The notes under the pieces: model-generated
What the model saw: the letters and a program-made list of their open reading frames with translations, nothing else
What the model was told of the DNA's origin: nothing
Database searches by the model: none
Position numbers and translations under genes: made by a program
Shown here: one piece after another, positions 1-41,606 of the stretch
How positions within the stretch are numbered: position 1 is the stretch's first letter
Layout: every line of letters begins with the position of its first letter
NCBI GenBank assembly: GCA_951406725.2
Contig: OX597828.1
Span: 14,694,001 to 14,758,000 of the forward strand
DNA from: Octopus vulgaris
Lineage: Eukaryota
Length of the DNA: 64,000 nt
Direction of reading: 5' to 3'

Positions 1-411
1 TATGCTAATAATAACTGAACAGAATGTTTTTATTCATGTTTTACAAGATGTACCTAATTCGTTTTGAAGACAGGAAACTCATGATATCCTGAGGCATCAA
101 CCCATGATATCCTGAAGCATCTTATAACAATAATAGGAGTTAGTGCACTCATCCATTCTCACACAGCATTTGCTAACATTGAACATTTTTATGCAGGTTT
201 TCTAAGATGTACTTAAACCATTTCTTTGTGTAAGAAAGAGAATTGTTCATATATTTTTTCAAACTCTTTTACTCTTTTACTTGTTTCAGTCATTTGACTG
301 CGGCCATGCAGTCAAATCGACCCCAGGACTTATTCTTTGGAAGCCTAGTACTTATTCTAGTACTTATCACAGGCATACAAACACACACACATATACTACG
401 CCAACTCTGTA

Positions 412-1548
412 ATGGGATACTTAGAAGAACAACTCTACCAAGAGGTGGAGGTAAACTATGGCACTGGATTTAGAAAGTATATTGAAAGGGCATGGAAGAG
501 ATACCTAGACGACTGTTTCATAATCTGGACAGAATCTCTAAATACTCTGGAAGAGTTCAATATCCTCCTGAACAACCTACACCCATCTCTCAAATTTACA
601 AAGGAGATGAGTAGTACCAAATTACCATTCCTGGATATAATGGTAATTAAAAAAGACACCACCATCACCACAGATATATACTATAAACACACAGACACAC
701 ATCAATACCTAAATTTTAAGTCGTGCCATCCACCACATACAAAACGTAACATCCCATACTGCCTAGCCAGAAGAATTTGTACTATTGTAGAAGATGCAAA
801 TATCAGGAACAAACGCCTAATAGAACTAAGAGAATTTTTGCTCAAACAAAAATACCCATCTCTACTTATAGAAAATGGCATACAGCGGGCTATAAAAATA
901 CCTATACAACAACTTAGGACAACCCAAGGAAGAGGAAAACAAGAACAAGTCATACCATTCATAGTGACACACAACCCATGTCACCAGAATATCTTCAACA
1001 TTGCCAAAGCAAACCTACCAATCATTGCCCAAAGTAATGAATTAAAAGACATAATCAAGGATCGAGCTATGGTGCTTAGTAAAAGACAGCCTAAAAACTT
1101 GAAAACATTACTAACAAAGGCAAAATTTGACCTCAGCAACAAAGACCAAACATTCACGGTATCTAAATGCAATGATAGCCGATGTGGCACATGCCAATTC
1201 ATACATACCGGTCAATATATAAACACAAAAACCGGGAAAATATTCACAAACGCGAATATGAACTGCAAAAGCAGAAATTTAATTTACTGCATCAAATGCC
1301 CAAATTGTGAAGAAATATATGTAGGTCAGACGGGAAACGCACTATTAGAACGCTCACGTGTACACCGGCAACAGATTAGAGACCCAGAGGTCCGTCAGAT
1401 ACCTTTGAGTAACCACCTAGCAACATGTGGTCGGAAAATATATATAATATTTCCATTCTACAAATTACACAGCCCAAGTGAAATCGAGAGGAAAATCAGA
1501 GAAAAGAATTTTATTGATAAATTCGAACCCAAGCTAAATAAGCAATAA
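412..1548 (+). CDS. Penelope RT (C-terminal part) + Cys-rich linker + GIY-YIG endonuclease; uninterrupted but N-terminally truncated
   Basis: RYLDDCFIIW (YxDD), LPFLD, IYYKHTDTHQYLNFKSCHP thumb, CNDSRCGTC linker, NLIYCIKCPNCEEIYVGQT...R..H GIY-YIG motif, terminal PKLN. Confidence 0.92.
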   Translation: MGYLEEQLYQEVEVNYGTGFRKYIERAWKRYLDDCFIIWTESLNTLEEFNILLNNLHPSLKFTKEMSSTKLPFLDIMVIKKDTTITTDIYYKHTDTHQYLNFKSCHPPHTKRNIPYCLARRICTIVEDANIRNKRLIELREFLLKQKYPSLLIENGIQRAIKIPIQQLRTTQGRGKQEQVIPFIVTHNPCHQNIFNIAKANLPIIAQSNELKDIIKDRAMVLSKRQPKNLKTLLTKAKFDLSNKDQTFTVSKCNDSRCGTCQFIHTGQYINTKTGKIFTNANMNCKSRNLIYCIKCPNCEEIYVGQTGNALLERSRVHRQQIRDPEVRQIPLSNHLATCGRKIYIIFPFYKLHSPSEIERKIREKNFIDKFEPKLNKQ

Positions 1549-3979: not shown

Positions 3980-4390
3980 GGCGGCGAGCTGGCAGAAACG
4001 TTAGCACGCCGGGCGAAATGCTTAGCGGTATTTCGTCTGCCGTTACGTTCTGAGTTCAAATTCCGCCGAGGTCGACTTTGCTTTTCATCCCTTCGGGGTC
4101 GATTAAATAAGTACCAGTTACGCATTGGAGGTCGATATAATCGACTTAATCCGTTTGTCTGTCCTTGTTTGTCCTCTCTGTGTTTAGCCCCTTGTGGGTA
4201 GTAAAGAAATTGATATTTCGTGTGTCTTTACGTTCTGAGTTCAAATTCCGTCGAGGTCGACTTTGCCTTTCATCCTTTTGGCGTCAATAAATTAAGTACC
4301 AGTTGCGTACTGGAGTCGATCTAATCGACTTAATGTCCTTGTTTGTCCCCTCTATGTCTAGCCCCTTGTGGGCAATAAAGAAATAAGAAT
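3980..4390 (+). mobile_element. tRNA-derived SINE (Meta/Sauria-like core), head-to-tail dimer
   Basis: GGCGGCGAGCTGGCAGAAACG head, B-box GAGTTCAAATTC, core GCCTTTCATCC..GGGGTCGAT..AAGTACCAG. The second unit restarts internally near 4210. Confidence 0.85.
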
Positions 4391-9477: not shown

Positions 9478-10723
9478 TTCTACTCTAGATACAAGGCCCA
9501 AAATTTTGGGTGAGGGGCTAGTCGATTAGATCGACCCCAGTATGCAACTGGTACTTAATTTATCGACCCCGAAAGGATAAAAGGCAAAGTCGATCTCGGC
9601 GGAATTTGACCTCAGAACATAAAGGCAGACGAAATACTGCTAAGCATTTCGCCCGGTGTGCTAACGTTTCTTATTTCTTTACTGCCCACAAGGGGCTACA
9701 CACAGAGGGGACAAACAAACGGACTAAATCGATTACATCGACCTCAGTGCGTAACTGGTACTTAATTTAACGACTCCGAAAGGATGAAAGGCAAAGTCGA
9801 CCTCGGCGGAATTTGACCTCAGAACATAAAGGCAGACGAAATACTGCTAAGCATTTCGCCCGGCGTGCTAACGTTTCTTATTTCTTTACTGCCCACAAGG
9901 GGCTACACACAGAGGGGACAAACAAACGGACTAAATCGATTACATCGACCTCAGTGCGTAACTGGTACTTAATTTAACGACTCCGAAAGGATGAAAGGCA
10001 AAGTCGACCTCGGCGGAATTTGACCTCAGAACATAAAGGCAGACGAAATACTGCTAAGCATTTCGCCCGGCGTGCTAACGTTTCTTATTTCTTTACTGCC
10101 CACAAGGGGCTACACACAGAGGGGACAAACAAACGGACTAAATCGATTACATCGACCTCAGTGCGTAACTGGTACTTAATTTAACGACTCCGAAAGGATG
10201 AAAGGCAAAGTCGATCTCGGCGGAATTTGACCTCAGAACATAAAGGCAGACGAAATACTGCTAAGCATTTCGCCCGGCGTGCTAACGTTTCTTATTTCTT
10301 TACTGCCCACAAGGGGCTACACACAGAGGGGACAAACAAACGGATTAAGTCGATTACATCGACCTCAGTGCGTAACTGGTACTTAATTTATCGACTCCGA
10401 AAGGATGAAAGGCAAAGTCGACCTCGGCGGAATTTGACCTCAGAACATAAAGGCAGACGAAATACTGCTAAGCATTTCACCCGGCGTGCTAATGTTTCTT
10501 ATTTCTTTACTGCCCACAAGGGGCTACATACAGAGGGGACAAACAAACGGATTAAGTCGATTACATCGACCTCAGTGCGTAACTGGTACTTAATTTATCG
10601 ACTCCGAAAGGATGAAAGGCAAAGTCGACCTCGACGGAATTTGACTTCAGAACGTAAAGACAGACGAAATACTGCTAAGCATTTCGCCCGGCGTGCTAAC
10701 GTTTCTGCCAGCTCGCCGCCTTA
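9478..10723 (-). repeat. Tandem array of a Meta-core SINE, 207-bp period, ~6 units
   Basis: GGAATTTGAC recurs at 9601, 9808, 10015, 10222, 10429 and 10636; a single complete head lies at ~10723. Confidence 0.95.
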
Positions 10724-37880: not shown

Positions 37881-39766
37881 CGTAAAAGAGAGTAAAGAGA
37901 TGCAGTTACCCTGTTTAAAACAGAGTGAAGTTTACATATTTTGAGTATGGATGGTTTGACAGGAGCAGGCAAGATGGAGGGCTGCTCCACACTCCAGTCG
38001 TCTGTTTTGGCATGGTTACTATCGCTGGGTGCTTCTTACATGGCACCATCAAGGATGCTTTTTTTATGTGGTGCCGGCAGAACTTTTATCCCTGATGAGA
38101 GTGTGGTAACAAACGGAAACAGTTGGCCAGCTGTTAAGAGCCAAATCTCAATAAATATATCTACCACACCCTACAGTTCTCCACTGCAACATTGTCTTGA
38201 GCATTTCATCAAAACTAAATCTCACATATAAATAAAATCCCTTACATTAGTTTATTTCCCTTGCCCTACAATTTTCTCTGCTCCCTATTCCTACATTCAT
38301 GCTACCACTTTCACTGATTTCTCCTTAGAAATCGCCATTAAAAAAAAAAGGGGGGGAGACAACCCATGCACAACTGCGATAATCTGACAAATAAGAGTAG
38401 TGCCCCTTCCATTTTCTGAAGAGCATCCGTACTTCTAACGTTATCTTCACAGAAAAAAAAAATCAGCAGGAATATATACAGGCACAGGCATTCGTTGAAG
38501 TTCCACTTTGCAACAACATGCTTTCTAGTTCTATCCCGCAGCGTATCACCTTGATCAAGTGTTTTATATTGTGGCCTTGAACCGATCGCAGGTTTGTATG
38601 TGAATTCAGAAGACAGAAACTGAATATATCAAAATAAATTAGTAGTAATTGATGGACAGGTGCCAATTCATTAGAGCCGTTTCTAACGAATTTTTTTAAT
38701 TGATCAATGAGTACCCTATATCATTATAAGAAACCTTTTTCTCCAGATGAATACATGAACTTTATAATCGAGGGCATTTAAAATAATTTTAAATCCATGG
38801 CACATACATATTTAGTGATTCTGTGACTGGCTCTTGCTGACCTAACCAGGTGCCTCAACTTTAAGTACCTTCTTTAACAGAATCTGGTTATGCTATATTC
38901 TATATATATAGATATATATTGAAAAAAAAGGAGCCAGTCAGAAACCTCTCTATCTATCCCCTCTTTGCTTTCCTTTCTTGATTGCCCTGCTCCTTATCTT
39001 TCTTTCTCCCTCCCTCAAAAACAAAAACATTTTCTCCTTTTCTAAGCAAAGCGAAAAAAAAAAAAAAAACTCCTGATTCACATAAAAGAACAAGAAAACG
39101 TTCTGTTTTTATCCTTTTGGTTTTAATTTTTACCTTGAGTTCAGTTCGACGAACAAAAACACTACTAAATTATCCAAGATTCTAACAACCACCGTTTTTT
39201 TAAAAAATACAATATCTGTACACCACTTCAAACACTATACATACATACATACATACATGCATATATGGAAATGCATGTGTATATCTATAAACACACACAC
39301 AGAGATCTACAATTTTTTGTGGTTTTTCTTACAAGCTACTCATTGGATCATAATTTTCCACACAACTTCATAGGTTTGAACCCAAGATACAAATATAATC
39401 ACATTTCTAGAGGAAATGTCTAAAGAATGAAATGAATTATACAAGAAAGTGTTTTCACTGTATTTTCTAATTAAAACCAAGGAATTATATCGAATCAATA
39501 TTTCTATATTATATATTGAATGCATGCCTATATGACTACACAAAAAATTATATAAAGAAAAATAATAATAGTTAAGCACTTAATCCAGCAATGTGTAATT
39601 AACAGATAATACTTAATCATTTAGCTACATATAAAGCATAACAATAGAGTTAACAGTTGTTTATCGAGGACTATTCAAGCTCTTAAACTAACATATTTTA
39701 CATCATAATATAAACGGAACATTAAAAAAGGGTTGGGTTTGTTTTTACATTATGATCTCTACTTAC

Positions 39767-39842
39767 AACTTCATCTCTGTTTCAATAGCATGTATTCGCT
39801 TTCTAAGGTTTGTACATTCCTCTTTTAGGGAGTTCAATTCAC
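39767..39842 (-). CDS. SLMAP: SLMAP-like exon (SELNSLKEECTNLRKRIHAIETEMKL), 76 nt, phase 1-2
   Basis: TTTTTACCAG / GTAAGT; frame joins both neighbours. Confidence 0.88.
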
Positions 39843-41059
39843 CTGGTAAAAAGGTAAAAAAAATTATTATTTTTAAGAAATTGTTTCAAAAATATTATAA
39901 ATCATCATTATCATCATTTAAGGTTTGTTTTCAATGCTGGCATGGGTTGGATAGCTTGACAGGAGATGGCAAAACCAAGGGGTGCCCCAAGCTGAATAGA
40001 GTATAGTGTGTGCTTTTTATGCAACACCAGTGTCTATTTTTGTGGTGCCAGCACCAGTGCTTTTTTTTTCGTGGCACCAGGACCAGCATCATTGCTTTTT
40101 ATGTGGCACCATCACCATAACTTTTTACATAGCACCAGTGCTTTTTATGTGACACCAGCACCAATGCATTTTTTTTTTGTGACACAGTAATTTAGAAGGA
40201 AGGGTTTAGTTGACTACATCAACCCCAGCACACAAGTGGTACTTTACTTTATCAGTCCCTGAGGGATTAAAGGCAAAAATGACCTAGGCTGCATTTGAAC
40301 CCAGAATGTAAAGAGCTGGAAGAAATATAGGCACGTAAAAAGCACCCACTACACTCGCGGAGTGGTTGGCGTTAGGAAGGGCATCCAGCTGTAGAAACAC
40401 TGCCAGATCAGACTGGAGCCTGGTGCAGCCCTGGCTTCCCAGACCCCAGTCGAACCGTCCAACCCGTGCTAGCCCGGAAAACGGACGTTAAACGATGATG
40501 ATGATGATATTCATTCCAAAACTGTAATGATTCTGCCAGCTTTCCACCTTAATACATGCTTCTGATTTAAGCACAAAGTCATGGAAACATGTGGCTAAGT
40601 GGTTAGGGTGTTCAGCTCACAATTGCAAGGTCACAAGTTCAATTCCTGACTGCACGCTATGTCCTTCATCAAGACAACTTATTTCATGCTGTAGGATTCA
40701 TTTCCAATATCTATTTGGAAATCTTGAAGCAGCCAGTGTTTCATCTGCCACCACCATCACCAACAATAACAGGGCTGTTTGTATTATTTCACTTGGTAAT
40801 TAATATTCAAAGCTATTTCTAAAATACTCCAATATTAACTCTCTTTTTTTGTTTTACTATTCGAGATAGTAAATAAAATGCTTAATAATAATGGTTTCAA
40901 ATTTTGCCACAAGGGCAGCAATTTTAGGGGAGGGGGTGAGTCAATTACATCAACCCCAGGGGTTCAACTGGTACTTATTTTATTGACCCCCGAAAGGCCG
41001 AGAGGTAAAGTTGACCTCAATGGAATTTGAACTCAGAATATAGTGACAGGCAAAATACC

Positions 41060-41392
41060 TGTTTCTTTACTACCCACAAGGGGCTAAACACAGAGAGGAC
41101 AAACAAGGACAGACGAACGGATTAAGTCGATTACATCGACCCCAGTGCGTCACTGGTACTTAATTTATCGACCCCGAAAGGATGAAAGGTAAAGTCGACC
41201 TCGGCGGAATTTGAACTCAGAACGCAGCGGCGGACGAAATACCACAAAGCATTTCGCCCGACGTGCTAACGTTTCTGCTAGCTCGCCGCCCTTTTTTTTT
41301 TTTTTTTTTTTCCATCAGTCTCAAGAACCAGAATGTATACCCTCCATGTATGTGGCAAAATCAGGTTATACAAGATAGAGCTCATCCTCTGG
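41060..41392 (-). mobile_element. Chimeric retro-insertion: 81-nt RNA + A20 + young Meta-core SINE, inside an older SINE
   Basis: 15-bp TSD GACAGGCAAAATACC at 41045-41059 and 41393-41407 encloses all three parts. Confidence 0.85.
41312..41392 (-). ncRNA. Retrocopy of a candidate box C/D snoRNA
   Basis: CCA-G-AGGATGA (box C, 1 mismatch)...CTGA (D')...ATGGAGG (C'-like)...CTGA (D)-TGG, terminal CCA/TGG stem, followed by oligo(A). Confidence 0.4.
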
Positions 41393-41489
41393 GACAGGCA
41401 AAATACCACTAAGCATTTCATCTGGCAGGCTAATAATTCTGCCAGCTCGCCGCCTTCATAATAATAATAATAAAAATAATAATAATTAC

Positions 41490-41606
41490 TTTTGTTTTTA
41501 GCTGTGGGTCTGTGCGTAGATTCATGTGAGCTCTTAACATGAGGAGAATCTCGTTGACGAGTGTTTTTATCAGTGTCTATTTCATCTTGTAATGTCTTTA
41601 CTTTGT
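41490..41606 (-). CDS. SLMAP: SLMAP-like exon (NKVKTLQDEIDTDKNTRQRDSPHVKSSHESTHRPTAKNK), 117 nt, phase 1-1
   Basis: TTTTATTTAATTAG / GTAATT; open in the running frame. Confidence 0.78.

Follow-up and report, generated by a model that had tools for sequence, protein, structure and literature searches.

Within a 64,000-nucleotide stretch of Octopus vulgaris DNA, which was analysed as a whole and is called the window here, a short sequence resembling a box C/D small nucleolar RNA (snoRNA) is followed by a run of 20 adenines (A20) and then by a complete short interspersed element (SINE). The locus raises the question of how a small RNA and a SINE came to be joined in this manner, and whether a new snoRNA gene was created as a result. 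The evidence described below makes it probable that a box C/D snoRNA with a predicted target at A102 of 18S rRNA was recently retrocopied here, that it was fused through A20 to the SINE in one insertion by a jump of the reverse transcriptase (RT) between templates, and that the copy is non-functional. The single locus is probably a pseudogene, and the recurring pattern to which it belongs is the finding.

A snoRNA copy and a SINE within one target-site duplication

An earlier note, made from the letters of the DNA alone, described a minus-strand arrangement in which one 15-bp target-site duplication (TSD) surrounds an 81-nt sequence, A20 and a complete young SINE, and this description matches the sequence base for base. 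The features are listed below in window coordinates, from 5' to 3' on the minus strand; the parents mentioned are the genomic snoRNA copies described in the next section.

about 41490..41606, minus strand: upstream SLMAP exon, located by tblastn
41408..41456, minus strand: head of the older, interrupted SINE, recognized by sequence comparison
41393..41407, minus strand: 5' TSD, 15 bp, equivalent to positions 49-63 of the older host SINE
41312..41392, minus strand: box C/D snoRNA retrocopy, 81 nt, likely SNORD57 orthologue, by similarity to its parents
41382..41388, minus strand: box C, AGGATGA, a variant common to the four parents
41361..41364, minus strand: box D', CTGA, whose guide is without a convincing rRNA target
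41320..41332, minus strand: D-box guide, with a predicted 13-bp duplex (2 G-U) with the animal's own 18S rRNA
41315..41318, minus strand: box D, CTGA, a sequence motif
41292..41311, minus strand: A20 linker, which the parents do not have
41060..41291, minus strand: full-length young SINE, 232 nt, 98.7% identical to sibling L020
41045..41059, minus strand: 3' TSD, 15 bp, an exact direct repeat of 41393-41407
40939..41044, minus strand: body of the split older SINE, colinear with the head listed above
about 39766..39842, minus strand: downstream SLMAP exon, located by tblastn

The sequence motifs reported for the 81-mer are present; it begins with CCAG-AGGATGA, carries CTGA internally and again near the 3' end, and has TGG as its last bases. 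Its box C is one change from RUGAUGA. The copy extends from 4 nt before box C to 3 nt past box D, so that its ends fall within the stem of the parents, and such ends are those expected of a trimmed snoRNA. No match was returned by Rfam for the whole window at the gathering threshold, and the bare 81-mer folds no better than its shuffles (z 0.96), a weakness that is expected for C/D snoRNAs.

The insertion lies in sense orientation in an intron, as had been proposed, with SLMAP exons on both sides on the minus strand, and one exon in the window matches Octopus SLMAP proteins at 96-100%. With the insertion, the intron is 1647 nt long. The snoRNA copy begins 97 nt past the 5' splice site, and about 1470 nt separate it from the 3' splice site further down. 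The immediate target was an older, about 80% identical SINE that is split by the insertion at family positions 49-63.

The inserted SINE, which we take to be of tRNA origin and to belong to the family named OK SINE, returned no tRNA when it was examined with ARAGORN. It starts with one or two A's. Its proposed youth is borne out by its nearest genomic sibling (L020), the percent identity of which is given above, and which carries an A before the same SINE head and has its own 15-bp TSD. The TSD of the window insertion starts with GGT, and GGT also follows the SINE in 17 of 29 young siblings (L020-L048); for 11 of these, the sequence that follows is another SINE from its position 49 onward. The GGT flank and this sibling pattern together indicate that the 3' junction carries the signature of this SINE itself. 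The GGT found after SINE ends and at the start of several TSDs suggests either priming by base pairing or a preference for certain sites. In a transcriptome of O. vulgaris, an RTE-clade LINE was the sole putatively active element found, according to the part of that report available to us (PMC9115989).

Four contig sets (X1, X2, X4 and X5) were compared with the insertion at 100% identity. They provide essentially no depth on 41375-41391, an interval that holds the private base of the window copy (snoRNA position 18, window position 41375), in contigs of a kind that drop variants. No joint across the insertion was present among the best 15 of 68 from the same sets. This outcome fits a private insertion and proves nothing. 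In a further comparison with X22, X23, X2 and X6, copies of the SINE dominated the matches, and the unique flanks received no coverage from the raw-read runs.

SINEs also form head-to-tail arrays elsewhere in the window, at 9520-10720 (minus strand) and 3980-4383 (plus strand), where later units begin at SINE position 16 or 48-49, and such dimers and multimers are common genome-wide. A 395-aa open frame at 361-1548 (plus strand) has a GIY-YIG domain at its end and is likely the end of a Penelope-like element.

The parent snoRNA and its predicted target

The 81-mer had been described as unique, which proved incorrect. A search of the animal's own genome yielded six matches, namely the window copy and five others, of which four lie on contig C11 and the last is a 5' fragment on contig C23. 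The C11 copies are 98, 96, 94 and 85% identical to the 81-mer, and they reside in the 15-kb third intron of RPS23, a gene assignment made by Pfam (PF00164) on two of the three exons scanned. Each is closed by a stem of 5-7 bp and is free of both A-tract and SINE, and the window copy differs from one of them (c3) at 2 positions. The similarity search suggested in the earlier note thus recovered a box C/D snoRNA parent that lacks A20 and the SINE. This parent is neither an mRNA end nor a fragment of a transposable element, and its locus is devoid of the A-tract and SINE that a 5' transduction would have copied. The flanks of the parents are missing from the insertion, and both 5' transduction and DNA duplication were therefore rejected as origins.

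The match on C23 (L006 1501-1548, C23:24128474) is a second retrocopy, 3'-truncated, that preserves about 48 nt of the snoRNA 5' end. It has a 17-bp TSD and 2 nt of microhomology, with neither a tail nor a SINE. Capture by a SINE is therefore not the sole route by which this RNA has been copied.

The earlier note could assign no target and proposed that the guides upstream of D and D' be compared with rRNA. Against the 18.5-kb rDNA unit of the animal, this comparison succeeded for the D guide, whereas the D' guide gave no convincing target (best score only 16, compared with 24 for the D guide). By the D+5 rule, the D-box guide points to 18S A102. Its pairing with 18S is the top match in the rDNA unit, where the next-best score is 18 and the antisense control also reaches 18. 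When the guide was shuffled 300 times, only two of the shuffled versions paired with rRNA at this score. The energy of the predicted guide-18S duplex is -21.4 kcal/mol, and it is -23.6 kcal/mol for the most diverged parent.

The top Rfam match of the 81-mer is SNORD57 (RF00274), aligned over the whole model with 18.6 bits (E 0.11), which falls below the gathering cut-off of 47 bits. In humans, SNORD57 guides Am99 of 18S rRNA, as given in the accessible part of one report (PMC11550049). Octopus A102 is the site that corresponds to human Am99, and the D guide occupies the same place in both RNAs. Next to this target, octopus 18S differs from the complement of the Rfam guide, and the octopus guide has changed to match, which would account for the low Rfam score. 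Judged by target site, the octopus parent is thus likely a SNORD57 orthologue, while not being a member of the Rfam family. The hosts differ, because human SNORD57 is hosted by NOP56 and the octopus snoRNA is encoded by RPS23, with four copies in one intron.

That intron (C11:40634863-40650312; L007, L008 and L016) is crowded with C/D snoRNA copies. Besides the four SNORD57-like copies, it carries at least two with predicted guides for 18S C2449 and at least two for 28S C3410, and more were recognized by eye. The 18S rRNA gene itself (L014, C20:23978688-23981330) is 2643 nt long and deviates at a normally conserved stretch around A102.

Other snoRNAs fused to SINEs

In total, 11 fusions of the form snoRNA-oligo(A)-SINE were found, including that in the window, and these represent four snoRNA families. 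A TSD of at least 9 bp surrounds both parts in eight of the 11, with lengths of 15 (window), 18, 20, 16 (1 mismatch), 17 (2 mismatches), 16 (2 mismatches), 9 and 15 bp (L122). The TSD of L122 was read by eye and also encloses an extra 36-nt piece. Two further fusions (L139 and L083) have just 8-bp TSD matches, likewise read by eye, and for L143 no TSD was recognized.

The largest family resembles snoR77Y (Rfam E 0.0025, below the cut-off) and has a predicted 11-bp guide to 18S U828. A similarity search returned eight matches, consisting of one untailed parent, six copies that each lie on a different contig, and a partial duplicate in inverted orientation (L125), which adjoins L122 and was left out of all counts. 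An A-rich linker and then a SINE follow the snoRNA in all six copies. Two fusions, both recovered with the C/D pattern described below, carry a snoR38-like snoRNA with a predicted 11-bp guide to 28S G4119. Two more carry a SNORD100-like snoRNA, one of which (L083) emerged from a search for shorter A-runs and the other from a C/D pattern. The SNORD100-like parent has five genomic A's after its box D, so part of the linker in this family may be templated.

Two pattern searches contributed to this collection. A box-D pattern gave 48 matches, of which 30 were fetched, and one of these 30 is a full snoRNA chimera, through which the snoR77Y-like family came to light. A C/D pattern gave 19 matches at 17 loci, seven of which are snoRNA chimeras; the other ten were rejected because they have no guide with an A-rich linker or because the A's fall within the TSD. 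These patterns required A's and a SINE head, and thus the snoR38-like and SNORD100-like families yield no frequency. For the two families listed by similarity, seven of eight retrocopies are SINE fusions and plain poly(A) copies are absent, which is what a tail-specific LINE enzyme predicts.

Judging from their sequences, the six snoR77Y-like fusions look independent, because their SINE halves are unclustered, their linkers vary in length between 10 and 56 nt, and the SINEs include monomers as well as dimers. The SINE halves have a mutual non-CpG distance of 0.098, compared with 0.092 to 53 background copies, and the smallest clade that includes all six contains 90 of 91 sequences. Two bases common to all six copies differ from the sole parent found, and the donor was therefore not identical to that parent. 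Either a later change in the parent or a paralogue missing from the assembly may be responsible.

The parents of the snoR77Y-like and SNORD100-like fusions both belong to a C/D snoRNA cluster on contig C2 (L121, C2:174744835-174747904). This cluster also includes SNORD24, which scores above the Rfam cut-off, as well as SNORD79-, Cm2645- and SNORD81-like sequences, which score below it, as do the SNORD100- and snoR77Y-like members.

Formation of the fusions

The window chimera has the structure expected of template switching, since one TSD encloses both parts with none between them, the parts share an orientation, and they derive from separate loci. The earlier note proposed that RT finished the SINE and then jumped onto an oligoadenylated snoRNA. 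We infer such a jump as well, with support from the single TSD and from the recurrence of the arrangement. In this process, the LINE enzyme would prime from the 3' end of the SINE RNA, using a site of the GGT type favoured by this SINE, and would copy the SINE up to its 5' A. The terminal T of the cDNA could then pair with the oligo(A) at the end of a snoRNA that was undergoing trimming or degradation, after which the enzyme would copy the snoRNA to its 5' end and join the second target end. Because L020 begins with an A, the last A of A20 may be the first base of the SINE, which would provide one pairing base for the jump.

The source of the A-run is central to the alternative that survives best, according to which a single insertion also formed by template jumping, the snoRNA acceptor was untailed and the A's arose from enzyme stutter on the 5' A's of the SINE. 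This SINE does begin with one or two A's, as noted above, and template jumping by the R2 RT depends on non-templated addition, according to the part of that study available to us (PMC8857657). Moreover, about ten loci have a TSD, an A-run and the SINE with no cargo between the TSD and the SINE head, which implies that the enzyme may make A-runs itself. Such runs are rare, however. In the genome, at least 13 A's stand immediately in front of the SINE head at only nine sites, and shorter runs occur at 36 (30 of which were fetched), as compared with 35,154 exact SINE heads. Thus A-runs precede about 1 in 1000 heads (at most 45 matches in the two A-run searches, for about 35,000 heads), and yet all six snoRNA copies that were found by similarity, with no filter for A's, carry at least eight. 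The A-run is something that travels with cargo. An RNA other than these snoRNAs, followed by an A-run and the SINE in one apparent TSD, was seen at eight of the 39 loci examined besides the window (L049, L052, L058, L066, L068, L078, L079 and L087; the TSD of L068 lies in a microsatellite). In L087, the cargo is just a 17-nt 3' stub of SINE RNA before A12, so the cargo-less cases can be jumps that halted within a tail. Finally, of 285 junctions at which SINEs stand head to tail, the first 100 were read by eye and showed no run of eight A's; many of these junctions may be sequential insertions. With this evidence, we consider stutter onto an untailed snoRNA to be quite unlikely.

A second alternative is that the two RNAs were joined first, either by ligation or by read-through from a chimeric master, and that retroposition of the joined RNA followed, in the manner of platypus snoRTE. 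Ligation has been proposed for U6/L1 chimeras, according to the portion of that work we could consult (PMC13174262), and the two bases shared by the six snoR77Y-like copies and absent from their parent would be compatible with a common fused source. Such a source is difficult to reconcile with the SINE halves, which are scattered on the tree and differ in subfamily marks, in monomer or dimer form and in linker length, and the window copy is the sole SNORD57-like chimera. To our knowledge, moreover, an RNA with an oligo(A) 3'-OH end and one with an intact Pol III 5' end are not substrates for RtcB, which also counts against prior joining. We therefore regard it as highly improbable.

It is scarcely credible that a poly(A) snoRNA retrocopy and a SINE were inserted successively at the same site, as was concluded for adjacent snoRNA and SINE inserts in mammals by Weber 2006 (PMC1687206), because even though SINE position 49 is a hotspot that follows 11 of the 29 siblings, neither internal junction of the window chimera holds a third TSD copy or remnant whereas in the cases described in the accessible part of that paper the TSDs are separate or triplicated, 10 other loci repeat this order and flush junction, most of them outside the hotspot, and none of the eight retrocopies is a stand-alone poly(A) snoRNA.

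Function of the window copy

The sense orientation of the copy had raised the prospect that it could be processed as a new snoRNA gene. Its boxes and guide are intact. Its position alone does not exclude function, because one parent is only 63 nt below a 5' splice site in an intron with multiple snoRNAs. The terminal stem, by comparison, has been reduced to 3 bp, as compared with 5-7 bp in the parents, and its energy is -3.1 kcal/mol versus -7.4 and -9.8 kcal/mol in two of them. Function is doubtful because the parental stem has been lost, and the four parents are predicted to serve 18S A102 already. From sequence features such as these, we believe that the window copy is unlikely to be functional. 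The older sister chimeras of the snoR77Y-like family depart from the majority sequence at 1-5 of 69 positions, and these differences include a lost box D and altered guides. Most such fusions in the genome are likely dead copies.

Relation to known chimeras and snoRNA retroposons

The closest precedents for an RT jump onto a tailed snoRNA are U6/LINE and U6/SINE chimeras, in which a small RNA likewise lies 5' of a retroelement in the same orientation and within one TSD (PMC4476161; PMC13174262, both available to us in part). Chimeras of the U6 type are known with SINEs of stringent LINEs, as with Mon-1 in platypus and AnolisSINE2 in anole, and the cargos described in the available parts of the same two reports are mainly U6, 5S, truncated U3, tRNA and rRNA pieces (PMC4476161; PMC13174262). 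In contrast, the octopus cargo is a mature intronic guide snoRNA, the linker is oligo(A), the SINE is complete at its 5' end, and the host is a mollusc. Thus the kind of event is known, whereas the form in which a guide snoRNA, oligo(A) and a SINE are united is new. The literature searched contained no description of a snoRNA-oligo(A)-SINE chimera from a cephalopod, with the reservation that the tables of three papers (PMC1687206; PMC4476161; PMC13174262) could hold single cases, and a search of the literature found no study of snoRNAs in octopus.

Type-1 snoRNA retroposons of mammals resemble the octopus copies in having a mature 5' end and a 3' end at or close to the mature one, and they are often in sense orientation in introns (PMC1687206). 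Their A-tail has been attributed to a TRAMP-like enzyme in the accessible part of this work (PMC1687206). In that class, as described there, priming takes place at the tail and any SINE nearby is bounded by a TSD of its own, whereas the octopus tail is internal, the SINE forms the 3' end and there is one TSD. An assignment of the window copy to Type-1 was rejected on this basis, since its tail is followed by the 232-nt SINE rather than by its own TSD.

A snoRNA-derived head on the 3' part of a retroposon is also found in snoRTE/PlatSINE1 of platypus (PMC7245038). As portrayed in the part of that report available to us, snoRTE is an amplified family of uniform structure, whereas the octopus fusions look independent (PMC7245038). 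A family of this sort was rejected here, with only one SNORD57-like chimera present and with the SINE halves of the six sister copies forming no clade.

Mammalian L1 primes directly on snoRNAs that carry a tail, and the SINEs beside such copies proved to be separate events. The octopus fusions would extend capture by template jumping from U6 to guide snoRNAs, and to an invertebrate. Their junctions record the ends, and likely the oligo(A) tails, of germline snoRNAs, and they add new predicted guide-target pairs for octopus rRNA. A far broader proposal, offered tentatively because we judge it improbable, is that hitchhiking on this SINE is the main route by which snoRNA genes reach new loci in octopus, that the RT of the SINE routinely jumps end-to-end onto oligoadenylated intermediates of maturation or decay, leaving a fossil record of them, and that young sense-intronic copies are processed into working guides.

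Additional junctions

Several loci have junctions of more than two parts. In L122, the extra 36-nt piece (1468-1503) ends with CTGA and A's ahead of the snoRNA. An extra piece lies between the A-run and the SINE in L139, and repeated 5' stubs of the SINE are found at the 5' end of L041. These three-part junctions suggest serial jumps.

Two loci (L094 and L117, at about 1480-1520) have cargos of 22 and 13 nt that end in CTGA plus 3-4 nt and are followed by an A-run, inside the TSD. They may be 3' stubs of other snoRNAs, and no target was found when one was sought for these short cargos. At three more loci (L057, L074 and L093), a sequence of 60-90 nt with a terminal T-run lies just 5' of oligo(A) and the SINE, and in L093 it is located inside a 22-bp TSD. 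This recurring sequence is possibly another captured small RNA.
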